A stretch of 63,722 nucleotides of DNA, filler included. It is 23 parts of 23 records of this genome, joined end to end, with 100 filler letters (N's around TTAATTAATTAA, not from the genome) between each part and the next. Parts side by side here need not be neighbours in the genome. Positions count along the whole stretch, not along the records: positions 39,125 to 41,769 come from SRR36015645_61048; 22 more parts are not named here. One strand, written 5' to 3'. This document shows, piece by piece, positions 7,482 to 47,418 of this stretch. A program made the translations under genes and the position numbers. The notes beneath the pieces were generated by a model that was not told the origin of the DNA, ran no database searches, and was given only the letters and a program-made list of their open reading frames with translations. Position 1 is the stretch's first letter. Each line of letters opens with the position of its first letter.

Positions 7482-10400
7482 GCAAGAAAAGTCAATAATT
7501 CAAAAGTTAAACCTACATCGGCGTTTACTGCTCAAATGCAAATGAATTCACACCCTGAATTCGTTTGTTCTGCACTTCATACCACAGTTTATGATGCAAA
7601 GGGCACAGATAAGCGTACTCTCAGCTTCATCGAAGGGGAAGAGCTAGCCACTGAGACAACACCACGCTGCGGAGCATGCAAGTGTGGTAAGTGTCCAACA
7701 GTAGGGCAAACATATTCCTTCAAAGAGGAGCAAGAGCTAAAAATGATCAGGGATAATTTGGAATATGACGACAAAAACGTGTGTTGGAGAACTAGTTATC
7801 CGTGGCTAGTTGATCCAAAGTTGTTACCAGACAACTATAATATGGCATTTAGTACGCTGCGTAACACAGAAAGTAAACTCATGAAAGATCCAGTATGGGC
7901 TACTACATATGCAGCACAGATTCAAGACATGATCGACCGCAACGTAGCTCGGAAACTTACTCCAAAGGAGATAGCTGAGTGGACTGGACCTAAGTATTAC
8001 ATCAGCCACTTAGCGGTAGTAAATCCGCACTCAAACTCGACACCTGTACGTATTGTATTTAATTCCAGTCAAGTACATAAAGGGGTTTCACTAAACTCTT
8101 GCTTAGCAAAGGGACCAGACTGCTATTTGAATAATCTACTTGGGATCTTGCTCCGATGGAGAGAAGGCGATACAGCGGCTGTTGGAGACATAAGGAAGAT
8201 GTTTAACTCCATATACCTGCAGCTACTGGAGCAGCACTGCCACCGTTTTCTTTGGAGAAATTTAGATAACAGTAAGCAACCTGATATTTACGTTATCGAA
8301 CGTGTCAATATGGGCGATAGATCAGCACCAGCTATTAGCTCGGAGGCCATATACCAAACAGCTAGAAAGTTTTATGATGACAGTCCAGCTGCTGCTGACA
8401 TTCTCAGAAATTCTACGTATGTCGATGACATCATTGATTCCTTTCCAAACAGAGAACAGGCTTTCAAGGTAGTCAGTGAGGTTGAGGAGATGCTAAATAA
8501 AGGAGGTTTCAAAGTGAAATGTTGGCAGTTCAGTAACGAAGAATCAACGCGTTCCAGTATTGAAGTACGGGATAAATCAGTTAAATGTACGAATATAACT
8601 GGGATGTTAAAAGGCAGTGCTGAAGGTTTACGAGTTCTAGGTTTGGGATGGAAACCTAAGGAAGATTCGATCATATTCACGGTCACACTAAACTTTTCTG
8701 CAAAGAAAAAAGGCATTCGTACTGGTCCTAACCTGAAAAAGGACGAAATACCAACATTGCTACCAGCAATACTAACGAGAAGAATAGTACTGGAACAAGT
8801 GATGATGATTTATGATCCTCTGGGATTAGTTTCTCCGTTCACTTTGATGGCAAAGATTTATCTACGAGAAACATGGAAATTGCACCTTGAGTGGGACGAT
8901 CCATTACCAGAAAGCTTACATGATAAATGGGTCCATTTCTTCACAAACATGTATGAACTGGAACAACTTAGCTTGCCTCGCTGTCTACAGCCGAAGAATG
9001 CTGAGGGGTTACCATGGTTGATCATACTGAGCGACGGTAGTGATTTGGCATACGGATTTGTTGCTTACATTAGATGGGAACTCACAGATGGAAGCTATTG
9101 GTGTAGACTGATTATGACAAAGTGTAGAATAGCTCCAGTCAACAAAGTATCAACACCGCAGATGGAACTAAATGCTGCCGTGTTGTCTAAAAGAGGAAGA
9201 AAGATTATAGAAAAGGAAACACGTTTCCAGTACGAGAAGGTCATTCAGATAGTAGACTCAGAAACAGTGTTAAACATGATTAACAAAACAAGTACTCGCT
9301 TCAAAGTTTATGAGGGTGTACGAATAGGAGAAATACAAGCTGCAACGAATGGCGATATGTCGTGCTGGGCCTGGATGTCGGGAAAGCACAACACAGCAGA
9401 CTGGCTCACCAGAGGACGTTGTCCAAGTAATCTCAGTGCAGATTCGGAATGGTGGAATGGACCCGACATTCTGTACAAACCGGTAGAAGAATGGGGGTTA
9501 AAGTTTGGTTTGCAAAAGGATGAACCACTTCCCGGTGAGAAAAAGATATTCACAACAGCGGCAACTGCTTCCAAACCAGTTATTATTGAATACCACAGAT
9601 TCAGTAACATAAACAAAGCCATTTGGATGTTAGCAAGAGTGGTGAATGTGTTCAAACACAAATCGTTCAAAGGTGGTCAGCGTGACATGGTAACCGTGGA
9701 AAACCTTAGAAACGCAGAAAATATCATTGTCAAAGATATTCAAAAATCCATGGAACATGAACTAGTAAAACAGGATGCTAAAGGCAGATGCGGTGGTCAA
9801 TACTCTAGACTAACTCCCGTTAAAGACAGTAACGGGCTTTGGGTTGTTGGATCACGTCTGATAAAGTATAATGCAATGACTACAGATAATCAGTTACAGA
9901 AGTTACTGCCTACAACTCACCTAGGAACTCGCTTATTCATGGATCGTGCTCACAGACATGGTCATCGAGGCAGAGATGCTACATTAGCCACGTTTCGACT
10001 ACAATACTGGACACCGCATGGAGACAAAGTAGCAAGGACTGCGAAGAACATTTGCCAGAAATGCAAATTGCTAGATGTTACATTGCTTGCACAAGAAATG
10101 GCACCTTTGCCGGAAGACCGTTTAAAGCCTTGCTCGCCCTTTACCAAGGTCATGGTTGACTTATTCGGGCCATATTTAATTAGAGGCGAAGTGCAGAAGC
10201 GCACAAGTCTGAAAGGGTACGGAGTCATATTTACAGATTTGATAATGCGAGCTGTTCATATTGAAGCTGCGTTTGGTTACGACACTAGCTCATTCCTACT
10301 GGCACTGTCGCGATTTACAAGTATTCGTGGATGGCCAGCTACACTATACAGTGACCCTGGCTCTCAGTTAGTCGGAGCGGATAGGGAATTAAAAAGTGCG

Positions 10401-10815
10401 TGGGATAAAATGGATCGCAAGCAAATAATTGCTAATGGTGTAGCAAATGGCACAAATTGGATCTTTGGACCTGCTGATAGTCCTTGGCATCAAGGTGCAG
10501 TCGAGTCGTTAGTGAAGAATGCTAAACGAGCTATTCATTTTGCAGTGCATAACCAGCGTTTGTCAGGGTCGGAGTTTCTAACAGTTTGTACTGAGGCAGC
10601 AAACCTGCTCAATGAGCGTCCTCTTGGTGCTTTGCCAAAGCAAGATTCTGACATCAACGTCTTGACCCCAAACAGCTTACTATTGGGTCGAGCTCATGCA
10701 AGAAATCCTGGTGGTTGGCTACAATGCTACGATAAAGTAGAAACTCGGTATCAGCTAGTTAACGATATTACAGATCACTTCTGGAAAAAATGGGTTGAGT
10801 TATACGCACCAACCT
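7482..10815 (+). CDS. BEL/Pao LTR retrotransposon pol (RT, RNase H, integrase), truncated at both ends
   Basis: Open from edge to edge. RCGACKCGKC, YYISHLAV, GDIRKMF, YVDD, IYDPLG, SDGSDLAYG, NTADWLTRG, H-H-C-C zinc site, VDLFGP, SDPGSQL, GAVESLVK. Confidence 0.95.
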
Positions 10816-18514: not shown

Positions 18515-21500
18515 AGAATTGATGATAGCTTCGAACTCTACTAGTATTGTCAATAATTGAGAATGTTTTATTAATCGATTTCCAATGACCTTCCGTAGTG
18601 CTCGTTTCGTGCAGCCCACAAGTCGTTCGTAAAATCCACCCATCCAAGGAGCAGATGAAGGAAGAAACACCCATTGTATACCTGTATTTGAGATGAAATT
18701 CTGTGTCAATTCGGATGTCAGTGCCAATCTCCATGCTCTTTGGAATATCGTGTTAGCCATTTTAAAGTTTGGGGCATTGTCGGATATTATCTTTTTGGGG
18801 ACACCCCGTCTTGAAAAGAATCGTCTACAGCAGTCAATAAAGTCGCTCGCAGTTAATGCATTGGCTAATTCGAAATGCAAAGCTCTGGTTGCAGCACAGG
18901 TAAATAGACAGATCCATGTTTTTCGGTTGACGTTCAACGGTTCGTAGTCGTCACGAATTACCAACGGTCCTATATAATCCACTCCAGTGCATGAAAACGG
19001 TGTATTCGATGTAACTCTTTCCTCTGGCAGATTAGGTGGTGCTGGAGCTCTGAAATGATCTCCCTCCCAACGCCGGCAGATAGTGCAAGTGTTGATAACT
19101 TTCTTAACTAACGATCTTCCTTGTGCTATCCAATATCTAGTTCTGACTTGAGCGAGTACATGTTTTATACCAGCATGGAACAGCTTTTGATGACAATTCT
19201 GAATTATCAGTCGTGTGTATATTGACTCCTTTGGCAATAGTATGGGAAAGCGTGCATCAAACTCAAGTTGGGCATTAGCTAACCGACCTTTGCATCGCCT
19301 GATTCCATCTTTGTCTGTGAACAAATCATATCCGCATGATTTGCTTTTCAAACGTGGATCTTGACTTTCTTTAGGTAATGATTTTTGTATATGTCTTTCC
19401 CAAGATAAGCGAGCAGTATTAATTTCTTCAGTGCTGATTGTTCCTTGATTTAAGGTTGATTTGGACTGTTTGAGACGAAGGTTTGATACAAACCGATGGC
19501 ACCAAGCTGTAACTCTCAAGAGTTTTTTTAAAGTTGAAAATTTCTCTATACGTATTCCATATGGTGGTACTGTATCTTTTATATTTTCTGTGATCAACAT
19601 AGCGATGTTAGGACTGTTTTTAGATTGATATTCTGCCTCCGTATTAGTCGTTTCTTCTGGTAAGATCTGTATTGGATGTTGTGTAGGCCAATTATTTCTT
19701 GCTTGTTGTAACCATTTAGGTCCCGTCCACCAACTTTGGCAGTTTTTTAATTCCTCTGCAGTTGTCCCCCTTGTGGGAATGTCAGCCGGATTGTCCGATG
19801 TTGCGACATATCGAAATTCGATGTTTGAAGTAGATTTAATTTCCTTAATTCTATTGGCAACAAACGTACTTAAAAGCTTAGTTGTCGAAATCCATGTTAA
19901 AACACATTTTGAATCAGTCCAAAGAATCTTGTTAGAAATGTGTAAACGACACTCTTTCTCCACAAATTGTAGCAATCTCGTGCCAATCAATACTCCCATT
20001 AATTCCAGCCTTGGGATAGTGAGATTCTTTAGAGGAGCCAGGCGAGATCGACACATAATGATGTGACTTTTGGTAATGTTTTTTGACTGACAGTAGAGAT
20101 AAATAACCACAGCATAACATTTTGCTGAAGCATCAGAGAATGCATGTAATTCAAATATGGTGTCCTTCTTGTCCATTCCGTGTAGAATAAAACGGGGTAA
20201 ATTTAGACTTGATATCTTTGTAATTTCCTTTCGTATTTGATCCCATGCATTAATTACTTCTGGCTCAAGTTTATCATCCCAAGTTGACGTTTGATTCCAT
20301 GCGTTTTGCATGAGTATTTTGCCTGGTAACGTGACTGGAGAAAATAACCCTAATGGGTCGTATAAGCATGCTACAACTTGAGCTAGATCTCGTCTTGTTG
20401 ATACTGGTTGATCTATCTTTTTCGGACTTTGTATACTAATTCGATCACTATGTGTGTCCCACACAATCCCAAGTATTTTAATTATTGTTTCATTTACCTT
20501 GTCAACTGTTGGGATTTGTTTAAGAAAAGATGTTGAGTTTGAATTCCATTCTCGGAGATTCATGGATGCATTGTTAAAAATTTCTTTTGCCTTTTTATAA
20601 TATTCCATAGCTTCTGTTGGGTTTTCCTTGCCTATGATGATATTGTCTACGTAAGTATTTTCAGCAATTTCTTTAGAAATTTTGCTCCCTTCTTTCATTA
20701 AATGGTGTTTTAAACAGGCACTGAGTAAAAAGGCACTGCTTACAATACCAAACGGAACACGGCAGAAACGGTAAGTTATTATGTTAGAATTGTCGGCTGG
20801 TTTTGATGGGTCCTTGAGCCATAGGAATCGCGTTACATCACGGTCTTCGGTTTTAATTCCGATCTGTAAATAAGCTTTCTCGATGTCGCTTATAAGTATT
20901 ATAGGTGACAAAAGTATCCTGATAAGAATGCCGCATGAAGATTCTATTAGTGTAGGTCCCTTTAATAAACATTCATTTAAGCTAAGTGCTTTTTTGTTAG
21001 CCTTTGCTGAAGCGTTAATGACGACTCTAACTGGTGTAGTCGTATTGCCAACTTTGATTACGCCATGGTGTGGTAGGTAATGTTTTACATCACTCTGTAT
21101 TGTTTCTTTAGTAACTTCTTCAATGATGTCGTGGGATTTCCATGTCTCAATTACTTCATTATACTTTTGTAATAGTGTAGGATTTGTAGACAACTTGCTA
21201 TGAATGTGTTTAAGTCGTCCAAAGGCTAATTTGAAATTTTCAGGTAGTTCTGTGCGATCTCTCTTCCAGGGCCATGATATTTGGTATCTCCCATTTATCA
21301 TTTCAACGTTATCATTGAATTGTTGTACTGCCCAATCATCATCTTTGATTGTTGGATTATCCGAAATTCCGATATGTTCCAAACTCCAAAATCCTTTCAA
21401 TTCGTTTTGAACATCAAATGTAGGTACTCTTGATTCTTGGATGCATACTAGTGATGTGTCGATTTGTTCTTTACATTGAAAGTTAGTTTTGTTTCTTTGT

Positions 21501-21739
21501 ATGTTCTGCTTTCCACCAACTAACCACCCAAGTTTGCTCTCGCACAATGCTAAATTTTCTTCAATGTTAATTCTGTTATTTAGTAAAATGGAGTAATAAT
21601 AATCTGCACCAATTAGTAATGTGATGATAGTAACGTGTGTCTCTCTGGATAAGATATGAGAGTCTGCCAAATGTATTGAGTTTAGAATGGGATATTTTCT
21701 GTTGCATAAGTTGACGGTATTTAATGGGCATACAATTTC
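18515..21739 (-). CDS. BEL/Pao pol (protease end, RT, RNase H, integrase), truncated at both ends
   Basis: LLIGADY, FWSLEHIGI, YLPHHGV, SDIEKAYLQ, YVDN, YDPLG, FSDAS, DNPADIPTRG, GVDYIGP, SDNAPNF, GGFYERLVG. Confidence 0.95.
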
Positions 21740-21841: not shown

Positions 21842-24534
21842 CCAACATATACATCGAAATGTTGTAATGCCATAATGACAGCCAGAGTTTCTTTTTCAAT
21901 AGTTGAGTAATTACGTTGGAAAGGGTTCAGTTTCTTTGAATAATATGCGATAGGGTGGTCAACTTTATGATCATCCATTTGCATTAAGACTGCCCCTATA
22001 CCGACGTCACTAGCATCGGTAACCAACTTAAATGGTTTATAGAAGTTCGGGCTAGCTAACACAGGAGTCTGCAACAAAAGTCTCTTCAACCTTTCGAAAG
22101 CTAACTCTTGATCCCTGTCCCATTTGAACTTAACATCCTTAGCTAACAATTTAGTTAAGGGGACAGCAACATCTGAAAAATTTCTACAAAACCGCCTGTA
22201 ATACCCTATCATGCCTAAGAAACGCATTAGTTCTTTTCGGTTACTTGGTCTCGGAAAGTGACTAATTGCATCTACCTTAGCTGAAAGAGGTCGTACCTCC
22301 CCTTGTCCTACCATGTGGCCAAGAAACTTGACTGTAGCCTTACCGAATTCACACTTCACTAAACTAAGAGTGATATTAGCCTGCTTCAAACGTTCGAATA
22401 GTGCTCGAATTCTGTTTACATGTTCTGGCCATGTATCTGAATAGATCACGATGTCATCTATGTAACAACCACAACCTTCCAAACCTTGGGTTACATTATT
22501 TATCATCCTTTGAAAACTTGCCCCAGCATTTTTCATTCCAAAGGGCATGACTTTGTAACGATACAGTCCAAAGGGTGTCACGAAAGCTGAAATATTTTTA
22601 GCCCTTTCTGATAACATGACCTGCCAATACCCTTTTAGGCAATCAAAAGTAGATACATACACAGATGTACCAACCTTATCAATGCAATCATCCATACGAG
22701 GTATTGGATAATTATCCGTAACGGTAACTTTGTTCACTTGCCGATAATCTGTACAACAACGGTCAGAGCCGTCCGGCTTAGGGACTGTTAATTGGGGCGA
22801 ACTCCAATCACTAATACAAGGTTCTATAATATCATGCAGGAGCATATATTCAATTTCCTTCCGTAACTTATCTTCCTTTACTTTGTTTACTCGATAATAG
22901 TGTTGTTTAATCGGCTTAGTCCCTTCTACAATTTCTACATCATGTACCCATGCATTAGTTTTACTCGGATAATCTGGAAAAATTGACTCAAATTCCCTGA
23001 TTAACTCAATCAGATCATTCTGTTGACTAGGTTCCAAGTGACTCACCTTACTATCAAGATTTTTCAGAACATCCGAATTCGATAGTTTAATTTTACACCT
23101 ATCCATTGTATCTTCTAACTCGTTACTAAGTTCTGTTTCAACTTCTACAGTTGCCTCTGCCACTTTATCTGAAGAGATTGCCATTACAACCTTAGCTTTA
23201 TCAGGAGGTAAGAATTCTTTCAACATGTTAACATGACATAACTGTGTAGGCTTCAACCGATCTGGAGTATTAACGACATAATTTTGATCACTCACTTTCT
23301 TTACAACTTGGTAAGGGCCATGAAATTTGGCAGCCAACGGTTTTCCCTGAACTGGAAATAACACAAGAACGTAATCTCCGACTTTGAAACTACGAACCTT
23401 CACTTTCCGTGCTCGATCAAAGTTAGCCTTCATTTTATCTTGAGCTTTACCGAGATTGTTCCGTGCTAATTCAGTTATATCAGCTAATTTATCACGAAAA
23501 TTCATAACATGTTCGACAACGCCCTTCGCTTCCTCATTTTTGGGACTTTGCCAATTTTCTTTAAGAACCGACAATGGGCCACGAACTTGGTGTCCATAAA
23601 TCAGTTCAAATGGCGTATATCCCAAGGAATCTTGTACTGAATCGCGTACAGCAAATAAAAGTAATGCTATAGATTCATCCCAATTCTTGTCGTTTTCAAA
23701 ACAGTATTTTCTCAACATTCCCTTGAATGTTTGATGAAAACGTTCTAACGCCCCTTGCGATTCTGGATGATATGCCGAAGAAAATTTATGCCGTATACCA
23801 TTTTCCTCTGCAAATTTATGAAACTCTCTAGAAGTAAAGCAACTGCCTCTATCAGATTGTAAAACCTTCGGAAGACCGACTGACGCGAAAAAACTACGCA
23901 AACATTTCACTATCTTTTTAGTTGTAATATTACGCAATGGAAACGCTTCTGGGTACCTAGAAGACAGACACATAATTGTCAACAAATATTGATTGCCTGA
24001 TTTAGTTTTCGGCAAAGGTCCAACACAATCAATTTGAATTCTAGAAAACACTTCCTCTATTACAGAAATAGGTTTTAACGGTGCTTTGGGAATAGTCTGA
24101 CCCGGCTTACCAACAATCTGGCATGTGACACAACGACGGCAGAAATCCCGAATATCCTTATTGATCAAAGGCCAAAAAAAATGACGAATAACCTTTTGAC
24201 GTGTTTTACTATAACCTGTGTGACCTGACAACAAGTGGTAGTGTGCTAAGGACATAACCTGATGGCGAAAATTTTCTGGAACCACAATCTGTTCATATAC
24301 CTGCCAACTTTGTTTAGCAGGTACATCCGGGGGACGCCATTTACGCATGAGTAATCCATCTTTTAAGTAATATCCACCAGGCTGATTATCTATTTCGGAC
24401 TCAGAGACTGCTATATCAAACAACTTCTTCAAAGTTGGATCCTTACTCTGTTCGGAAATTAACTCATCACGAGAAGCAGGAATTACGATCTTTTCTTTAA
24501 CCTCAGGTGTCACAAAGGTATGTGTTTCTGTATC
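21842..24534 (-). CDS. Ty3/Gypsy pol of Gmr1 type (integrase upstream of RT-RNase H), truncated
   Basis: One frame holds, in order: HHCC (AHYHLLSGH..CVTC), rve (IDCVGPLP, SDRGS, GALER), GPY module, RT (DYRQVN, GYWQ, MPFG, YIDD) and RNase H (TDASDVGIGAVL). Confidence 0.93.
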
Positions 24535-24634: not shown

Positions 24635-26749
24635 TTTGGCTACTTGTCCACCTGGCAATGTAATCCCTTTGATGCTTTGGTCTTGTCTAATGGTAGAATC
24701 CAACGGTTCGCCAGTTAAAAGATACAAAATCATTGACAGTGGGCAGCCCTGTCTCAGCGATCTGGTTACTGATATAGTGTCTGTTAGTTCTCCATTTACC
24801 ATCACCATCGCTTCCATCTTGGAATAGATGATCTGTATCCATCGTCTCATGTTTGGTCCAAATCCGAACCTTTCTAGAACTTTGTGAAGCCAGGAATGTT
24901 CCACCCGGTCGAAAGCTTTAGCATTGTCCAGACACATGATAGCTGATGTTGACTGGGTAGTTAGTGTTCTTTCTATGATTCCTTGTATCAGGTAGATATT
25001 GTCAAAGATGAAGCGATCTGTTATTCCACATGTCTGGTTGATGTGAAGTAGCTTTGGTAGAACAGGTCGAAATCTTGATGCTAGTGCTTTTGTCAGTATT
25101 TTGTAGTCCAGGTTTAGAAGAGAAATAGGCCGGTAGTTATTCAGTAGACGGTGATCATTTTTCTTGTAGAGTAGTTTGATGATTGCCATTGTTAAGCTTT
25201 CTGGTAACTTGCCTGCCAGGAATGCGTTGTTAACCATTTCTGTGAGTTCATCTCCAATCAAGTACCAGTATTCCCTGTAAAATTCTTTGGGCAAGCCATC
25301 CTGACCCGGCGTTTTGTTGTTTGCCATTGATGAAAGAGCTGCGAATAATTCATCCTTTGTGATGAATGATTCCATTTTATCTCTGTCTTCTTTTGTTAGT
25401 GATGTAGAAATTCTGTTTAGAAATTGGTCTTGCACGTGTGAATCGGTCGGTTCACTCTTAAAGAGCTCTTCATAGAACTTTTGAACTACTTTCTTTAATC
25501 CTTCCTGAGTTTCTGTTATGTTTCCTGCGTCATCATACAAGGTATGGATGTACTGCTTCATATTGTTATGCTGTTCTAGGCCTGCAAAGTATTCCGGCGA
25601 AGTTTCCCCTTGCTCCAGATAAGCAGCACGTGACCTGATCTTCACGCCCTCTAGTTTTTGGGTTTCCATGATTTTCAGTGTAGATTTTGTATCTGTTATC
25701 TCTTTTAGAATCGTATCTTTTTCTGTTCTATCCTGTATCTTGTCCATCTTTTCGACCAGATTCTTTAACTTCTCAACGTTTTGGTCGTGTGTTTGTCTCT
25801 CTTGTTTGGACTTTTCCACGCAATAGCTGATGATTGTTGACTTTATCTTTGTTTTCAGCTTGTCCCACCATATCTGCATATCCTGGAATGTGTGTTTCTT
25901 CTCACGCCATTGATTGACACAGTGCTCTATCTTTGCTTTCAGGCTTTCCTCGTTTAGAACTGATGTATTGCAGCGCCAAATTCCCTTGCCCCGTGTGCTG
26001 TAGAAGCTGTTGTTGACGTGGAAGGTAACGTAGTTATGGTCGCTGTATGCTGATGGTGTTGATTCGCATTTGACTACGTGTTGGAGGACGTCAGGTGATG
26101 CATACATCCGGTCTAGTCTAGAGGCTCTTCCTTGTTGATCGTGGTGGGTAAAGTTTCGGCTGGTTGGATACAAAAAGCGATACACATCTGTTAATTTGTA
26201 TTCATCTTTTATCTCATTAAATTGTACGGAGCCGGCTGTACTATAGTACTGGACAAAATGATTTGTGTCCAGCTCTTCCTCTATCATGTTAAAATCGCCC
26301 AATATAAGGCAATTTCCGTCAATCTTACCCGAAAGATGGCGCTTTATTTCTGCATAAAATTTCTTGCGATCTGTTTTTTGGTTCACGGCGTAGACATTTA
26401 CCAAGGAATACCGCTTTTTACAAAGTGAGAAATTCACCAGCAAACAGCGCCCTTTAATGATTTCGAAAGTGTTGTGAATTTCTAAGTCATTGCCTAAAAC
26501 CGAGTTAAAAAGTATGCCTACGCCAGCTGTATAATTAGCTCTGTGATCGGCAAAACTCCAAAAACACAGCTTTTCGTTCCAATGTTTGTATATAACTGAT
26601 TTTTCGCTTTTTGACAGCTCATGAACTTCTTGTAGTACTGCAATTGAAGGATTTTTGTTTTTAAGCAGTGTTGCAATTTGCTGAGTTTTGCCTTTCATAC
26701 CATTAACATTAAATGTTAAAATGGTGTTAGTTTTTGATGTATTTGCCAT
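24635..26749 (-). CDS. Tx1/L1-group LINE ORF2 (APE endonuclease plus RT), truncated just before the YADD motif
   Basis: TFNVNG, LQEVH, NVYA, GDFN, SRLDR, SDH endonuclease motifs. KTPGQDG, NYRPISLLN, KAFDRV and RQGCPLS RT motifs. Confidence 0.93.
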
Positions 26750-27001
26750 GATAGAGGAAGTGTTTGATAATACAATAAATAAAAAGTACACAAAAATTAA
26801 GATTTCCATTTTGAGTTTTTTTGTGGTCACTCCAAGTCGTTTGTTGCACATGATCTATGTTGTCTTTGAGTTTGTTGTCTCTAGTTGGTCTTCGTCTATA
26901 ANNNNNNNNNNNNNNNNNNNNNNNNNNNNNNNNNNNNNNNNNNNNTTAATTAATTAANNNNNNNNNNNNNNNNNNNNNNNNNNNNNNNNNNNNNNNNNNN
27001 N

Positions 27002-32374: not shown

Positions 32375-33807
32375 CCTCTAGGCTATTATCGCATTATATA
32401 CATGCATGTATAATAAAATATGTGAAGTAGGCCGTCTAGCCGTAGTAATAAGCCTATTGCGTATAATTACAAGACATTTTTTATTGATTTAATACACTGA
32501 GCAAGTACATTGTATAGGCCTACATATGCAAAAGCATTGCACAGCACATAATACTGTAGTTTCTTCCAGGAATTATACCGGTGTACAATAATTAGCCAAC
32601 ACGGCCACACAGTATTGAAAAAGTATTGATATTATTATTTTTTTATATATACATGCATTTTAGCTGATCGGTTTATTCATATACTATCCATATGATAATA
32701 TGCATATTATTCGCATACTTTTATTCAATCAATATTTGTCCAATATTGTACGATACTCGAGTGTAGTCTATAGGCCTACTGCCTGTTCCCATTGCGAGAT
32801 ATACCCTGCTGACTGCTAGATTGTGTGCATTTCCTGCTCAAATATGTATTTTGACCAAATTCTTAAAAGTGTTGTTTTCACAGCTATTTCTACCATATTT
32901 TTGAAAAACTAGACTCTAACGTTACTATAGTGCAAAAATCTATGTTGACGTACATGTAAGTGGAGATCGTTAAGCAAATTAATTTTGTGCTAGAAGGTTA
33001 GTAACGTGAGCAAGCAATACACTATTAAAAAAATTCAGTTTTTCAAGTTATGCTCAGCTAGTGGCAATGAACGCCGGTTTTCAAGTGATGCTCAGCTAGT
33101 GACAATAAACGGATCTATAGGAGAGCAATATATTTTTCTTTTGCTGAACAAGTATGATTTTTGTGGTTTCACATTTTCAATAGTATAATCTACTATATTA
33201 GCATCTAAAGGATGCGGTATGAACAACTTATTAATTTGTTCTGTTTCGAAAAAGTAAAAAAACAAGTATAATATTATGAGCATTATACATTTTCTGAGAT
33301 TAGTAACAGTTCGCAGCACGAAATATTGAAATTTGATAAAATTTAATTTAGCTATACTGATAAATCTTATGTAATGGCACAAGCTATTACCCGTGTACAT
33401 ACATTTTTACAAAACTTTTTCTTTTTTGTTGTTATCCTTTTTGTGATAGGGAACTCTATTGCATATTTATGCATACTACTTTTTGTGTTATTTAAATTTT
33501 TGTTACATTGTTGTACTAACTCTTGTGATGACAGTGGCAGTAGTGTTTGGTATTCGCATTCGTATTTACATCCAAACGGTCATTTAGGTTGTGCCTGTGG
33601 TAACTTTGTGTATACCATTATAGCATTTAACGTGGACAAGGCTTCAGATATAGTTGTAATTATTTTAACTATAATGTTTCGACATGGGTAACTCTTTACA
33701 GGATTANNNNNNNNNNNNNNNNNNNNNNNNNNNNNNNNNNNNNNNNNNNNTTAATTAATTAANNNNNNNNNNNNNNNNNNNNNNNNNNNNNNNNNNNNNN
33801 NNNNNNG

Positions 33808-36800
33808 ATGATTCAAATAGTTGAAGCCAAACTTCCCAAGAGTTGGAGAATTGGTTGGAACCGTGAACAAGAGAAGTCAAGCAAAAAGAAGTACTCTTTT
33901 GGAGATCTCATTCGATTCCTGGAACGAGAAATACACATCAGAGAAATGTCTGAACTCGATTGGAATACGGATACAACTTCAAGTGGAAAAAAGTCGGATG
34001 ACAGACATCATGGCAACACATCAAGCAACTCATTTCATAGAAAGGCCAAGTCTGATATGTCTGCTTCAGCTTTAGTAGCTACCAGCAGTGAACCTTCCAA
34101 GTCTCGCTATTGTACCTTCTGTCAAAGAACCAATCATTTGCCGTACCAATGTTACACCAAGATGACATTGGAGGAGCGACGAGAGAAGGTCAAGGAAGCA
34201 AGGGCATGTTTTAAATGTGCAAGGAAGGGTCACATTGCCAGAAAATGTCGCCTAACAAAGAAGTGTGAATGTGGAAGAGTTCACATACCTCAATTATGCA
34301 CTGGTCAGAAGAAGGAGGAATCTGCAAACTCAACATATTCTTCTCATCTCGATGCAACAGCACCACAATATGTTCCTGTGGTTGCTTCAAAGTCATCATG
34401 TTCGACCTCAGCAAATGGACCACAGAAACATGGATTACGTATGAGAACTGTTTGTGTCACCATTGGAGATCAATGTGTGAGAGCACTGTGTGATACAGGA
34501 TGCACCTTCACTATGATTTCATCTTCTGTTGCCAGTAAGATTCCGAAAAGGATTTTACAGAAGCAGGCAATGACCATTGAAACCCTTGGAAGATCTATCA
34601 AGGGCGAATTCGAAGTCATAGAGACAACAGCAAGAGGGTATAACTTTCCTTCAGTCATAACGTTCCAAGCTATTGTCACAGACTGCATTGGTGGATACTT
34701 TGAAAGAATTGACCACAAGAGTATCAGTCTTCTTACTCAATGTACTGGACCTCAGAATGCGGTACTTGCGGATATTCCAGGGGATGAAATGGATCAAATC
34801 GGTATAATCTTTGGAGAAGATGTATACGACAAGCTAATTGTAGGATTGACAATCCCGTTGCCAAATGGAGTGAAAGCTACACCAACAATATTTGGTTGGA
34901 TGCTTCATGGAGGGGAAGGCAGGCCAAACGTTGCAGCCAAAGCTAGTATTTCTCCAACAACAAGAAGCTGTGTCTATCGTGGAACAATTCAAGATCAGTT
35001 AAGTGAATTTTGGAACTTGGAACACATAGGGATACTGCCAAAGGAGATGTTGGACACAAATGTAGAAGAAGAAGTTCGGAACAGCATTGAAATGGACGAA
35101 TCCGGTCACTACATACTAGGATGGCCTTGGAAAGTCAATGCTAAGAAACATTTAGCTTTAAACAAGGAAGTGTCAGAAATTCGACTCAACAAGCTTCTGA
35201 AACGGCAAAGTCCAGACGAATACCAAGCATATCATAAGCAAATAGAATCACTGTTAGAGGATGGCCACATTGAAGAATTACCAGAGGATGCTGTGCCAAT
35301 CTCATATCTTCCCCACAGAGGAATAGTAAAGAAGACATCAGAAACCACCCAACTACGTGTAGTGATGGATGCATCTGCCAAATCAAAAGGCAAGCTATCA
35401 CTGAATGAATGTTTGGAGAATGGTCCTAACTTGTTGTCTTTTCTTTGGGGAATACTCATTCGAGATAGGATTGGCTACGTCTCGGTAACTGGGGATTTAG
35501 AGAAGGCCTTTCTACAGATGATACTCAAGGAAGCAGACAGAAATGCATGCTGCTTTCTCTGGAAGACACCTCCACCCGAAAATCGATGCATCACTTATCG
35601 GATGAAGAAAGTTATGTTTGGAGCTAAGCCGTCTCCATTTCTTCTTCAAGTGACGCTAAAACATCATTTAGAAGCCGAAATAGGTGAAGTTGCAAAATCG
35701 TTGCTCAAGAATATCTACGTGGATGATGTTATCAACTCACTGGATTCAGTAGAAGAAGCAGAGGAGTTTCTGATGACAGCACAAGATATATTCAAGAAGG
35801 GTGGATTCAACTTGCGTAAGATCTACACCAGCAACCAAGAACTCACAAAGAAATTCAACAAATCACCAAAGCAAGGCATGAGCAAGGTTCTAGGTGTTGT
35901 TTGGGATCCAGATGCCGACAATCTTCTTCCATTGGCAGGTGTAACAGATTTGTCACCACATCGCTACACAAAAAGAGAAGCTGCATCTCTTCTAGCCAGA
36001 GTGTACGACCCTCTAGGGTTAGCAAGTCCTGTTGTCACCACACTCAAGTGCTTCATGCAGGATCTTTGGAAGAAAAGGCTGGGATGGGATGAGAATCTAC
36101 CTCCAGAAGATTGCAAAAACTTGGTGGACATACTTGAGAACTTCAAGGATCGTGACCAGCTTGTAGTCAGGCGTTGGATGGGTACTTACCTCCATAAGGT
36201 GGGACTAGAGAATACGCTGCACATCTTTACAGATGCTTCATCAAGAGCATATGCAGCTACTGTATACCTAAGTGTTCAAAGCTTGGATGATGTTGTTACA
36301 AACCTCCTCACTTCCAAGTGTCGATTGGGTCCAGCAATTGGAACAACCATTCCTCGAATGGAATTACTTGGTGCCTTACTAGGAGCTCGTCTGTTACGAT
36401 CCACTTTGGAAGAGTTGGAAGATGTACTCACGATCAAAGAATGCTATCTCTGGACGGACTCTACTATAGTCTTATCCTGGATCGAAAGAGGACCAGGTGT
36501 GGATGGAGTCTTTGTTTCGAATAGGGTAGACGAAATTCGGTCAGTGTCTACAAATTGGCATTGGGTTCCAACGGACTCAAATCCAGCCGACGTTCCAACG
36601 AGAGGGGCTACAATAGAACAGCTCAGCAAGAACGACTTGTGGTGGCATGGTCCATCATGGTTGTCTAAAGAACAAGAGTGTTGGCCAAGGATAAACATAA
36701 AAGCTATGCCTAACATTGTCATCCCCACTGCAGAGGAGAACTCTGAATATGTGGAGGATTTAGTAGAGCCGTTAAGAACGAGCAAATGGACTACCACTCT

Positions 36801-36822
36801 TAGAAGTCTATGTTGGATTCTG
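33808..36822 (+). CDS. BEL/Pao gag-pol (zinc knuckles, protease, RT, RNase H), truncated at both ends
   Basis: CTFCQRTNH..C, CFKCARKGHIARKC, ALCDTGC protease, YLPHRG, GDLEKAFLQ, YVDD, YDPLG, FTDAS, SNPADVPTRG. Confidence 0.95.
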
Positions 36823-39024: not shown

Positions 39025-39124
39025 NNNNNNNNNNNNNNNNNNNNNNNNNNNNNNNNNNNNNNNNNNNNTTAATTAATTAANNNNNNNNNNNNNNNNNNNN
39101 NNNNNNNNNNNNNNNNNNNNNNNN

Positions 39125-41055
39125 TCACCTACATCCGATGTCTGGCCAAATACTACCCACCCGAGTGGAGTTTTCCGAGCGATTAGTCCGTTTTCTTCTT
39201 TTTCTACCCCAGTAAAGAGTCGTAGATGGTCTACACCGATAAGTATATCTAAATGACCCTCTTCCCGGTACAAGTTGCCTTTAATGTTAAACATTTCAGA
39301 TATCTTTTCCAAATTTATGTTATCAATATAACCAGTTATTTCCGGTATACCATATGCTTTAATTTTGTAGAATTGATCTTGCTCTATGGATCCGAGCTTG
39401 AGGTCATAAATGGTTGTATTTAGAAGCTGTGAACTTTCATTTCCTACCTTAGATAGGCTGATCGTTGTGTTTTTACCTTTAAGTCCCAGCTTACGAGCAG
39501 TTTCTTCTTTTATCAACGTTACGTTGGATCCCGTGTCGAACATAAGTAATACACTACTTAAATCTCCTTTAAAATTTCCCGCTCTGACAGATAAAACTGG
39601 ACATATTGCTGTAGCAAAATCAGAAACGTGATGGGCTTGTACATTATATGTATTCATCAACGCTTCATGAAGTAAAGGGTTGTGAAATCCTATGCACTGC
39701 TTATTGTTTCCCAAGTTAAATTTGCAATGGCTTCTTCGTTTACATGTGCCAGCGTAATGGGTTTTGTTGCCTTTTTTTAAACACATGAAGCATACATTTT
39801 CTTCTCTGCATCTGTTATACCTTTCGTGAGATGACATGCCTTGAAATATTCTGCATTGATCTACCCAGTGATCATTTTGCTGACATACCCAACACCAGTA
39901 TGCGATCATTCTGTTTTGTTGTGACTCTGTTTGCTTGTCTGTTGATCTGTTATTAATTGTTGCCCTATTATTTTCGTACATTGAATTTCTTGCTGGCTGT
40001 GATACGGATACATAACCACAAGAATCCTTTCTGATTCGCTCCACATTTTCTCTGGCAGTGATATCGTTTTCCAGGTATTTTAGCAGATTATCGAGCGTCC
40101 AGTCATTGTCCCCGTTTTTTTCATGTAAGCTAAACTGTATTGCCTCTGGTAACTTACTAAGTATTAATGGTACGAACACTATCCCGAAATTTTCTTTTGA
40201 TATTTCCAATGCTTCCAAACAGCGAATGTGAATGTTACATGTATCGTATGTTATTCTGAGTGACTGAGTTGTATTATTCGCGGATGTTAAATTAAATAGT
40301 GCCATAAAATGGGTGAATATTGCCAACTGTTTCCTGCCAAATCTTCGCTGAATTATTCCTTTTGCAATTATATAGTTGGCTGACGTTAGTGGAATGCCTC
40401 TGATAGCTCCGGATGCTTCATCTGTCAGTACTCCCTTTAAATAGTTAAATTTGTCGATATCGGAAAGTGTATTGTTATTATCTACGGCAGTTGTAAATTG
40501 ATCCATAAATTCTTGATATTTTAATGGATCGCCATTAAAATTGGGCATTTGTAGTTTCGGGAGTTTGGCATTTACCTTTATGTTTCCTGTTCCTGGATTA
40601 TTATTCGAAGAATGTTGCCTACCTTCGCTTTCGGATCTTAGTTCTAACTGTCGTAACTCTATTTCCTTTTCTTTTTCCAGTTCTAGCTTTTTTATTTCTA
40701 ACTGTCTATCCTTTTCTCTTTCTTGTGCGGATCTTTCATTTTCTCTTTCTTCGAACTCTAACTTTTTTAACTCGAGCTCGTGCTTTAATTTTTGTTCGAA
40801 CTGAAACTTTTCCAATTCGAGACTGGTAGAGGTAGGTACGGGCGTGGCGGCATTGGTGTCCCTTTTGCTTCTTCTGGTGCTTGGCCCTGGATTAGCCTCT
40901 ATGTCCATGCAAACTAGAAGGAGCAAGGCCAAACATGTTCTCACTGCAACAGAATAGCCAGACAACACCAGACCTTGTATTACTGATTTCGGTTTATGGC
41001 TGCCCCCCAAAAAACAGCCAATGGCAGCGCGCCATTGAATCAATGAATTTCCCAT
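39125..41055 (-). CDS. BEL/Pao gag-protease with an N-terminal 2A-like (StopGo) leader, 3' truncated
   Basis: CAAAATGG start. Leader MGNSLIQWRAAIGCF...LLLLVCMDIEANPGP. Coiled coil, DUF1759-type KLPKLQMPNFNGD..F..DKFNYL..NY..RFG, zinc knuckles CWVC..H..C and CFMC..H..C, HNPLLH, protease FDTGS, LGWVVFG. Confidence 0.9.
40882..40932 (-). other. 2A-like ribosomal skipping motif LALLLLVCMDIEANPG|P
   Basis: Exact D(V/I)ExNPGP consensus at residues 51-58, preceded by a Leu-rich helix. Confidence 0.85.
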
Positions 41056-41706
41056 TTTGATGTTCTTTTATTTCCCACACAACAACCTTCTGGAATAGCC
41101 CTCGAGTGGTGATGAAAATTTCCTCCACTTACACATACCGTACACAATCCTTTTTACTTAGAAACTGCTATTTTGCTTACCTCTTTCTGCTTCTCTTTTT
41201 ACGTAGCAAATATATGAGCAGAAACTATTTCACAGTACGTACATTTAAACGCTACATTTGGACACCAGAAACTAAAAATGGCCAGACCTGATTTAGCAAA
41301 GTTATGCCTCAGCTGGTCCGTAAAATTTCAGAACTTATTATGTTTTGCTAACTACATGTTTATTTTTTAAACATCATTTTTGAAAGTGTTGCGCTAATTA
41401 ATATATGGAAGCACATTTTTGTAATTAAGTTACTTTATTAACTATACATTCAAAAATGTTGCGGATATATAATTTAAAAGACATTTTAATCGGCAATTTG
41501 TGTTTCCTAGAAATCTGCATCATAATATGAAAGAAGATAATACATTTATATCCTTTGCCCAGTTCGATATTAATAACTGCAGGCCTTGTTTCGTTAGTAC
41601 GAAACACACTTCCGGGCGCCTTTGAATTTTATCCTGTACCATCCAACATTTTAACCCGACATGCAAATATAATTTCTATATACAATAAGCTAAAATCTCG
41701 ACTATT

Positions 41707-41769
41707 CTGCCTTATTAACCTGTTTACATACAACTAATAATACTGCCTTATTAAACCTGTTTACATACA
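41707..41769. repeat. ~35-bp tandem duplication at the contig end
   Basis: CTGCCTTATTAA(A)CCTGTTTACATACA occurs twice. Confidence 0.8.
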
Positions 41770-41869
41770 NNNNNNNNNNNNNNNNNNNNNNNNNNNNNNN
41801 NNNNNNNNNNNNNTTAATTAATTAANNNNNNNNNNNNNNNNNNNNNNNNNNNNNNNNNNNNNNNNNNNN

Positions 41870-45422: not shown

Positions 45423-47418
45423 TCATATTACTGTGTCCTGTTCCTCAATCGGCAATAACATGCACAATTTGCTGATCGGTCTTTCATATAGTTGTCCCCT
45501 TTTCTGAATTTCTACACTTCGTACTCGACTATCTCGTCCCGGAAAGACTTTGGTTACCTTTGCAATAGACCATTTGCCGCGTAGCTCCTTGTTGTCGTGT
45601 AGCATGACAATGTCTCCGACTTGCACATCTCTCTGACTTTGGTGCCACTTTCGTCGTGGTACTAGTTCTGGTAGACAGAATTTTCTCCATCTTTTCCAGA
45701 ATGAGTCAGTAATCTGCTGAATGATTCTCATTCTTTGACTGAATCCACTGTCAGCTAAAAACGGACCTTGTGGCACGGTTGATGAAGCTCGGCCTAATAG
45801 CAGGTCATTAGGACAAATGTAGCATCCATCACTTGGGTGTTTTGGTATGCCTATGGGACGCTGATTCACTATGTTTGAAACTTCTTTAGAGTGTTGTTTG
45901 GAGCTCATTTGGCGTAAGTACCGTATTTCGAATTATTTTCTTCAGGGTTGCTTTGCAAGTTTTCACCAAAGCTTCGGCGCATCCATTCATGTGAGGAGCT
46001 GCAGGCGTAACAAAACTCCACTTTATTTGCTTTTCTGCTCCATAATCCTTTAAAGTTTGTTTATCAATTCTGCGACGGGATTCTCTTAGTGTGCGGGATG
46101 CACGGACTAATTGTGATCCGTTGTCCGTCATGATATGACGTGGACAGCCACGTATTGTAATAAATCTACGGAAGGCCTGGAGAAATTCATTGGTTGAATA
46201 ATCCAAGCATATATCCAAATGGACGGCTCGTACTGCAAGACATGTGAATATAACACAGAAAACGTTTATCATTTTGTTCTTTGTAAGTTTGCACACAAAG
46301 GGTCCGAAAAGATCACATGCCGTTTCATAGAATGGAGGAGACGGATTTGTCCTTGACTTGGGTAGATCGGCCATACGTTGTTCTTGTATGATAGGGTTCA
46401 GTCTTTTGCACAAAACGCATTTGTATCGAATAGACTTCACAATATCTGTAATACGGAGGATCCAGAAATTTTTCCGTATCCGAGCAATCGTAGTAGAGAC
46501 TCCTGAGTGGCTGATGTCATGATAGTGTTTTGCGATCAATTTTGATAATCCGTGTTCTTTTGGTAACAAGTACGGATGTCTTTCATCATATGTTATTTCT
46601 GCTGAATCAATGCGTCCTCCTACTCGGGTCAAACCATCGGTATCTGTAAATGGATCAAGATTTCTGTACTTGTTTATGTCCATTAATTTCTTCTGGGCTT
46701 CCCTTATCCAGAATATCGTTGCTTCTGAGTAGTCATCCGAATTTGGATGTGCACCGTGTTTGAAGGATTTATTTCGAAACATACATTTTATCATCGCGGT
46801 GATTTTCAGGACTTGCCGATACGTTGATTTTCTTTCCAGAAGTTTCACTATGCTGTTGTCGTCATTCGGTATGTTGACCAAATTTATTCGGCGTTCTGGT
46901 AATCTGTTTACTCTTGGAATATTAATGGACCATTCTTCTTCCTTTGTGCGAAGAAAATTCTGACCATTTATCCATTCTGTTTGTAGGTTATCTGCGGATG
47001 CACCCCTTGAAATAATATCTGCTATATTCATTTCTCCGGGCAACCACTTCCACTGTTCGATCTCGGTTTTTGTGTGAATTTCAGCTATTCGTACGGCTGC
47101 AAATGTGTTGAACCCTCTTGGCTCCTTTTGTATCATTGAAAATACAACATCGGAATCTGTGAAAAAGTATGTCTTTTCAAACCTTGTTCGGGAACTTTCC
47201 TTTATGAATGTCGCCAATCGTGTTGCTATAACTGCAGCCTGCAATTCTAGCCTAACAATCGTTAATGATTTTATAGGAGCTACCCTAGATTTAGCACTTA
47301 TCAGTTTAACCTGTATCGATCCATCGTTCATTGACCATCGAATATAGGCACATGCTCCATAGGCAGTTTCTGAGGCATCACTGAACAGTATCAGTTGTGG
47401 TTCGCATGAATCCTGTTT
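45423..47418 (-). pseudogene. BEL/Pao pol C-terminus (RNase H, integrase, DUF5641-type tail) with a 1-nt frameshift near 45888
   Basis: LFSDASETAYG, NIADIISRG, CDLFGP, TDNGSQL. The sequence ...ELQTTL then stop continues as KEVSNIVNQRP..PNDLLLG..FWKRW..RKW in another frame (CTC-T-AAA-GAA). Confidence 0.88.

Follow-up and report, generated by a model that had tools for sequence, protein, structure and literature searches.

Architecture of the reading frame

The window, i.e., the whole stretch of DNA analyzed here (63,722 bases), consists of 23 separate contigs of each 2018 to 3770 nt joined by 22 linkers, which are 100-nt runs of N that each carry TTAATTAATTAA (22 copies observed versus around 0.01 expected). 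Because the window is a chain of separate contigs, sequence outside positions 39125 to 41769 is unlinked to the locus described below, a minus-strand reading frame on a single contig with linkers on both sides (Table 1). The frame opens with an ATG at 41055-41053 in the context AACATCAAAATGG, with A at -3, G at +4, and an in-frame stop five codons 5' of it. It then runs stop-free for 643 sense codons down to 39127, a boundary set by the end of the contig, where the reading frame passes into the N/TTAATTAATTAA linker without reaching a stop codon.

The product of this frame (P0001) begins with a leader in which a conserved head, a basic patch, and a hydrophobic stretch precede a 2A (StopGo) core, and it continues through a basic linker and a long helix into a Gag domain, zinc-knuckle-like motifs, and an aspartic protease region. 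The preliminary description, which gave no strand, had listed a leader, a Leu-rich stretch, DIEANPG/P, RRSKR, a coiled coil, BEL Gag, knuckles, and DTGS in one frame, and every one of these features is present, as is the Met that it had noticed in place of Gly before the Asp of the core (position -8 of the 2A sequence).

Table 1. Positions of the contig and of the features along the reading frame (window coordinates; residues are those of P0001).
Feature	Residues	Positions	Strand	Remarks
Contig carrying the frame		39125..41769	minus	2645 bases; flanked by linkers 39025-39124 and 41770-41869
Region 5' of the ATG		41056..41769	minus	714 nt; AT-rich, GC 0.325
Leader	1-57	40885..41055	minus	From ATG to Gly of NPG/P; would be a separate peptide if Gly57-Pro58 is skipped
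Conserved head M-G-x4-W-R-x2-I-G-x-F	1-15	41011..41055	minus	Reads MGNSLIQWRAAIGCF
Hydrophobic helix	28-50	40906..40974	minus	Top 19-residue window of the protein, Kyte-Doolittle mean 1.96
2A/StopGo core DIEANPGP	51-58	40882..40905	minus	Asp preceded by Met instead of Gly
Basic Ser/Thr/Pro-rich linker	59-78	40822..40881	minus	RRSKR at residues 61-65
Single long helix	77-143	40627..40827	minus	E/K/L-rich, coiled-coil-like; model pLDDT >90
DUF1759 Gag domain	173-309	40129..40539	minus	Pfam; helical throughout in the model
Three Cys/His zinc-knuckle-like motifs	388-463	39667..39894	minus	First is CX2CX4HX4C, residues 388-401
Aspartic protease region	501-643	39127..39555	minus	DTGS at 507-510; cut off by the contig end

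The leader belongs to a recurrent N-terminal module

A search with residues 1-70 against 1.84 billion representative proteins gave 21 matches with E<=1e-3, of which the best reaches 6e-6 (42 bits) and none falls below 1e-10, as expected for a query of 70 residues. NPGP is present in all 21, and in 19 of them the alignment begins within the first 8 residues of the subject. With these 21 matches sharing NPGP and a single NPGP across the six frames of the 63.7-kb window, a chance origin of the motif is ruled out. The best full-length match is the ORF1p-like protein P0093 (49% identity over residues 1-69), in which the leader gives way to a coiled coil followed by an ORF1p-like domain. The ESM Atlas, searched with the leader, returned no usable match.

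When a profile of 14 leaders (alignment A1), in which R9 and G13 are invariant, was searched against proteins of 292 to 2000 aa with 8000 word-sharing candidates scored, 62 matches with E<=0.01 were found. Among the 83 representatives pooled from both searches, 48 carry a two-part leader, defined as a W/Y/H-R-x3-G head within the first 60 residues that is followed by NPGP. These leaders start with MG in 31 cases, and the spacing from W-R to NPGP, which is 47 in the window ORF, lies between 45 and 53 in 29 of the 48 (range 42 to 130). Position -8 is Gly in 32 leaders and Met in a single one (P0025), and position -7 is Asp in 34.

The proteins behind these leaders are very diverse. Those of LINEs comprise P0034, P0042, P0044, P0068, P0079, and P0084, which have Exo_endo_phos and/or RVT_1 in precomputed Pfam annotations, as well as P0030, which we assigned by reading its sequence. 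Many carriers are proteins of 300 to 500 aa in which leader, linker, and coiled coil lead up to an ORF1p-like domain (with a weak Transposase_22 match in P0040). Other carriers are one hAT-like protein, C2H2 proteins, and proteins with cellular names, i.e., ankyrin-type proteins of a sponge (ankyrin-3-like and tankyrase-like; P0060 and P0074) and USP/Macro and OTU proteins. The preliminary description had presented the M-G...W-R..I-G.F head as a LINE leader, putatively of the CR1/L2 group; its link to LINEs holds insofar as the motif is real and sits on the APE/RT proteins P0030, P0034, P0044, P0068, P0079, and P0084, but the ankyrin, USP/Macro, OTU, hAT-like, and C2H2 carriers show that it is not LINE-specific. 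Judged by its sequence, the leader in the window is a genuine member of this recurrent module of N-terminal head, hydrophobic helix, and 2A, yet the domains that follow it here are those of a BEL/Pao Gag-protease and not ORF1p-like or APE/RT domains of LINEs.

The remainder of the frame is a BEL/Pao Gag-protease

The DUF1759 domain is detected by Pfam (PF03564) with an E-value of 1.3e-26, scoring 93.9 bits where the cut-off is 25.4. Further downstream, gag-asp_proteas (28.5 bits versus a cut-off of 28.2) and Asp_protease_2 match at around residues 501-560, and the Pao-linked DUF1758 scores 16.1 bits, below its cut-off of 22. In a structural model covering residues 1-345, DUF1759 is confidently helical and residues 33-50 form a helix at low confidence. 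The top matches of a PDB fold search are all retroelement capsids (dArc1, MLV, HIV-1, and PNMA2); the best E-value is 0.077 and none is <=0.001, and the modeled structure is consistent with a capsid fold for the DUF1759 domain.

In a collection of 5.8 billion proteins, the closest family (the P0002 cluster) aligns with residues 164-639 of P0001 at 28% identity (E 8e-55, the value for P0115) and has its own 168-residue N-terminus without the leader. The 25 long relatives (24% to 35% identity) are full polyproteins, with sources that include a sea spider, a soft coral, and a sponge, and 23 of them contain PF05380 (Peptidase_A17); polyprotein relatives with Peptidase_A17, reverse transcriptase (RT), and integrase are 24% to 36% identical to the window ORF. 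Neither the leader nor an N-terminal NPG is found in any of 33 BEL/Pao relatives (25 long and 8 of near length), in line with the earlier remark that such a leader is not known as a standard feature of BEL/Pao elements. Conversely, precomputed Pfam annotations list DUF1759, DUF1758, or Peptidase_A17 in none of the 62 leader-profile matches, and a Pfam rescan of 19 of these plus two cluster members gave no Gag domain either.

Cellular genes among the leader carriers, such as the sponge proteins P0060 and P0074 or the USP/Macro and OTU proteins, bring up the idea that the locus is a domesticated Gag-protease host gene using the leader in the same way. The contig shows no RT or integrase, and other contigs of the window appear intronless or cDNA-like, both of which would fit such a gene. 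However, the frame leaves the contig exactly where BEL/Pao polyproteins pass into RT, the protease retains its DTGS motif, and the relatives are all polyproteins, so that we regard domestication as very improbable.

The junction between leader and Gag

Homology to other leaders ends at around residues 60-69, and BEL homology begins at residue 164. The ORF is a mosaic, as had been proposed, with residues 1-69 homologous to N-terminal 2A leaders and residues 164-639 homologous to BEL/Pao Gag-protease. When residues 59-163 were compared by blastp to all fetched proteins, nothing scored below E 0.06 and neither partner family was matched. This segment is of low complexity (21 E, 12 K, and 12 L among 105 residues), and its DNA is GA-rich with short imperfect direct repeats of 15 to 24 nt. 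Since residues 59-163 match neither side, the join may fall within this low-complexity GA-rich stretch. Low-complexity sequence is prone to erroneous joins both by assemblers and by template-switching reverse transcriptases.

It is unlikely, though worth weighing, that the junction is an assembly chimera in which a BEL/Pao Gag was misjoined, within the GA-rich stretch coding for the coiled coil, to 5' sequence from a LINE (or other element) that bears the leader. The short (2 to 3.8 kb) and TE-rich contigs that make up the window would be compatible with such an error, and so would the direct repeats and the lack of partner matches in the low-complexity segment, the coiled coils found at the equivalent position in ORF1p-like leader carriers and in BEL Gags, and the difference in GC3 between the leader (0.43, a value from 58 codons only) and Gag (0.34). 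Against this, the join is in frame and the N-terminal region of Gag keeps a normal length, while the repeats are merely 15 to 24 nt long and imperfect, the GC3 contrast is limited by its 58 codons, and misassembly is without direct evidence.

The distance from the skip site to the start of DUF1759 is 106 residues and compares to around 58 to 220 in relatives. In addition, Met is absent from residues 51 to 169, so this segment of Gag can be translated solely from the ATG of the leader. The normal length of the N-terminal Gag region and this Met-free stretch favor a clean fusion.

Another question is whether the locus could be a functionless one-off, i.e., a single rearrangement or nested insertion that placed a 5'-truncated BEL/Pao element behind the leader of a LINE (or other element) in frame by chance. 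The odds of an in-frame join are around 1 in 3, and the long downstream ORF would simply be the BEL ORF itself; moreover, the window holds no other copy, and no like architecture turned up in the databases searched. Nevertheless, such an origin seems quite improbable to us, given that the N-terminal region of Gag is not truncated compared with relatives, that 643 codons are free of stops, and that the leader retains its own start codon and all family-defining positions. The absence of a recognized LTR or primer-binding site upstream, which could also be taken to speak for a one-off insertion, is addressed in the following section.

The region upstream of the ATG

The 714 nt upstream of the start codon contain 17 ATGs with short uORFs and, where the contig ends (around 41700-41769), a 37-nt tandem duplication. 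Neither an LTR terminus nor a primer-binding site was recognized in these 714 nt, which represent one end of one element only; a tRNA scan of the window, made for comparison with primer-binding sites, gave 0 genes. The preliminary description had reported that no clear primer-binding site or LTR was visible in around 700 bp upstream and had drawn on this for doubts about the nature of the element. The observation itself stands, but the argument drawn from it is void on a 2.6-kb contig in a window of unlinked contigs. Since 2.6 kb hold a single end of a single element, the missing LTR and primer-binding site are neutral on whether the locus is part of an LTR element.

The leader-Gag junction is known from this one 2.6-kb contig. 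When the remaining 22 contigs of the window were searched by blastn and tblastn with this one as query, the results showed no second leader and only a distant BEL Gag-protease match with 22% identity in 33807-36822.

Expected behavior of the 2A sequence

At D(V/I)ExNPGP preceded by a suitable helix, eukaryotic ribosomes can skip the Gly-Pro bond, and three outcomes (continuation, termination, or normal bond formation) are distinguished by Roulston et al. (2016; PMC4981915). DIEANPGP satisfies the core D(V/I)ExNPGP as given by Odon et al. (2013; PMC3708506). Saturation mutagenesis of the viral P2A and F2A, as presented in the main text of a recent preprint (bioRxiv 10.64898/2026.09.24.754024), found that changes of the -8 Gly mostly abolish activity, with only N and I described as tolerated. 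In the window ORF, positions -19 to -10 read RTCLALLLLV and contain five Leu, and the main text of another preprint (bioRxiv 10.64898/2026.06.17.732966) links 3 to 6 Leu at these positions to lower protein abundance and places most retrotransposon-associated 2A-like peptides in this Leu-rich, low-abundance class. Because of Met at -8 together with five Leu at -19 to -10, clean skipping in the window ORF may be weak. From the same two features it follows that a throttle on Gag-Pol output would be at least as likely a function as the efficient separation of two products. The RRSKR motif shortly after the skip site is a candidate furin-type site, NLS, or nucleic acid-binding element.

Proposed capture of a StopGo leader by a BEL/Pao element

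The explanation that we favor, with a probability of around one half, is that a BEL/Pao element truly captured a LINE-type StopGo leader and uses it to regulate translation like a valve or to send Gag to two destinations. The contig would then cover the 5' portion of an LTR retrotransposon of the BEL/Pao type, present as a genomic copy or a transcript, that acquired a complete 57-residue cassette at the very start of its Gag-protease frame, composed of the M-G-x4-W-R-x2-I-G-x-F motif, a basic stretch with the Leu-rich hydrophobic helix, and the 2A/StopGo core. If the bond between Gly57 and Pro58 is not formed, the leader would be freed and a leaderless, cytosolic Gag-Pol starting with Pro would be made. 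If it is formed, leader and Gag would stay fused, and the hydrophobic helix could target the fusion to membranes or the ER. Finally, a ribosome that stops at NPG/P would make less downstream product. In this way, the leader would serve as a translational valve and possibly as a dual-targeting device for Gag.

The architecture of the frame, the homology of its two parts, and the lack of the leader in other BEL/Pao elements are direct results. That the junction is biological, that skipping takes place, and how the products act is inferred from evidence that points in both directions. The start-to-start, full-length homology of the leader, its typical 47-residue spacing, the 643-codon frame without stops, and the good ATG context argue for capture. 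Counting against it are the restriction to one 2.6-kb contig that has no further copy among the other contigs of the window, the fact that none of 33 BEL/Pao relatives has the leader and none of the 62 leader-bearing matches a Gag domain, the unmatched residues 59-163, the rare Met at -8, the lack of a recognized LTR or primer-binding site, and the 17 upstream ATGs.

More tentatively, the leader could be viewed as a portable, self-contained translational cassette that moves among transposon classes and host genes and, in this instance, gives an LTR element StopGo-controlled production of Gag-Pol. The conserved head would be just out of the ribosome tunnel once translation has brought the StopGo core to the peptidyl-transferase center. 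Hosts of such a cassette would include ORF1 and ORF2 of LINEs, a hAT-like transposase, the BEL/Pao LTR element described here, and host genes, and the BEL/Pao element would gain a throttle as well as a choice between free and membrane-directed Gag.

Comparison with known systems

Close precedents are the APE-type non-LTR retrotransposons (Rex1, L2, CR1, Crack, and Ingi), for which Odon et al. (2013; PMC3708506) describe 2A sequences 40 to 80 residues from the N-terminus of the main ORF with varied activities and propose that they down-regulate the downstream product. The D(V/I)ExNPGP core at such a distance and the hydrophobic context before it are shared with the window ORF, and homologues of its leader sit on APE/RT proteins; unlike in these elements, where APE-RT follows downstream, the window ORF continues into BEL/Pao Gag-protease and has Met at -8. 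LINE ORF1p-like proteins with 2A (bioRxiv 10.64898/2026.06.17.732966, main text) share the succession of leader/2A, linker, and coiled coil as well as a Leu-rich upstream part, and P0093 has this same architecture, but they carry an RRM-type domain where the window ORF has a DUF1759 capsid, knuckles, and protease.

Among host proteins, sea-urchin NLRs have N-terminal hydrophobic 2A-like sequences (SpNLR2A) that, according to Roulston et al. (2016; PMC4981915), act as recoding element and signal sequence in one. The split proposed there between a skipped cytosolic and an unskipped targeted product resembles what we suggest, from hydropathy, for the window ORF. The sea-urchin sequences are 26 residues long and lack the M-G...W-R..I-G.F head, in contrast to the 57 residues of the leader described here.

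Regarding elements of the LTR class, a Ty3-like RT that carries 2A at its C-terminus (bioRxiv 10.64898/2026.06.17.732966) and "LTR retrotransposon-like" contigs in a count of reverse-transcribing elements with 2A (bioRxiv 10.64898/2026.09.24.754024) are precedents for 2A as such, but the main texts of the two preprints mention no BEL/Pao case and no N-terminal Gag leader, though their supplements may list one. Likewise, a 2A leader on BEL/Pao Gag was not described in the full-text literature that we searched, although supplementary tables may hold one. Compared to the Gag-Pol of BEL/Pao elements (Belpaoviridae), the window ORF has the same DUF1759, Cys/His knuckles, and DTG protease and differs by the 2A leader. 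The combination of this leader with a BEL/Pao Gag looks new: the module itself is known, and the class of element hosting it would be new.

Most documented 2A/StopGo sequences of eukaryotes belong to non-LTR retrotransposons or to a small number of host gene families, and the Gag:Pol output of LTR elements is usually set by frameshifting, readthrough, or proteolysis. If our interpretation is true, the leader would be a module that travels between unrelated transposon classes, and an LTR element would be able to use recoding right where its Gag begins. Capsid assembly and localization would then provide a convenient read-out to distinguish between skipping, lowered output, and targeting. The wider leader family, in which very different proteins share a conserved head and a fixed spacing between it and NPGP, may be the more general point.

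Other contigs of the window

Most contigs of the window are almost wholly coding, and transposon proteins predominate. Because they are nearly fully coding and the cellular ORFs among them lack introns, these contigs may be cDNA-derived or collapsed repeats. The intronless cellular ORFs encode a Cyt-b5-containing protein of 1119 aa, for which the ESM Atlas gave no usable match, as well as proteins resembling Egalitarian and a glutamate receptor. The transposon proteins are Mutator-like, piggyBac-like, and THAP/P-like, besides one LINE, one element of the Gypsy type, and four further BEL/Pao pieces.

Leader family and related elements

The leader family, whose members run from an M-G-x4-W-R-x2-I-G-x-F head through a hydrophobic helix to NPGP, is carried by very different proteins (P0010-P0092; database matches, none from the window), namely LINE ORF1p-like, LINE APE/RT, sponge ankyrin, USP/Macro, OTU, hAT-like and C2H2 proteins. 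The conserved head keeps a set distance to the StopGo site, mostly 45-53 residues from head to NPGP. The ORF of the LINE contig has a hydrophobic N-terminal stretch and no NPGP, so the single LINE of the window is without the leader.

Four more BEL/Pao fragments, all with Peptidase_A17, are present in the window. Only one of them overlaps the Gag-protease region, with 22% identity to P0001 (the product of the 2A-leader Gag-protease frame), and this fragment starts within Gag and thus does not cover its N-terminus. The fully open 897-aa frame with Gypsy-type Pfam families throughout encodes integrase domains (aa 85-257 and 396-441) upstream of RT (aa 584-741) and then RNase H (aa 805-897), an order that may resemble that of Gmr1-like elements.

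Composition of the window

The window is made up of 23 unlinked contigs, each 2018-3770 nt long, with a 100-nt N/TTAATTAATTAA/N linker between one and the next. Findings of the preliminary description that span or lean on adjacent contigs are unsafe. The tandem duplication at the extreme 5' end of the main contig (39125-41769) could have arisen as an artefact of the contig end, or it could mark the edge of a repeat. Three intronless cellular-type ORFs suggest either a cDNA origin of the contigs or a genome with unusually few introns.

Features of the window
Feature	Position	Strand	Remark
BEL/Pao, Peptidase_A17	7482-10814	+	
BEL/Pao, Peptidase_A17	18515-21739	-	
897-aa frame	21844-24534	-	Gypsy-type
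LINE contig	24635-26854	-	APE then RT
BEL/Pao, Peptidase_A17	33808-36822	+	overlaps Gag-protease
Linker (example)	39025-39124		adjoins main contig
37-nt tandem duplication	41700-41769	-	start TGTATGTAAACAGG
Linker (example)	41770-41869		adjoins main contig
Cyt-b5-domain ORF, 1119 aa	41871-45227	-	cellular-type, intronless; open over entire contig
BEL/Pao, Peptidase_A17	45889-47418	-	
Glutamate-receptor-like protein, 467 aa	47596-48996	+	cellular-type, intronless
Egalitarian-like protein, 751 aa	55229-57481	+	cellular-type, intronless
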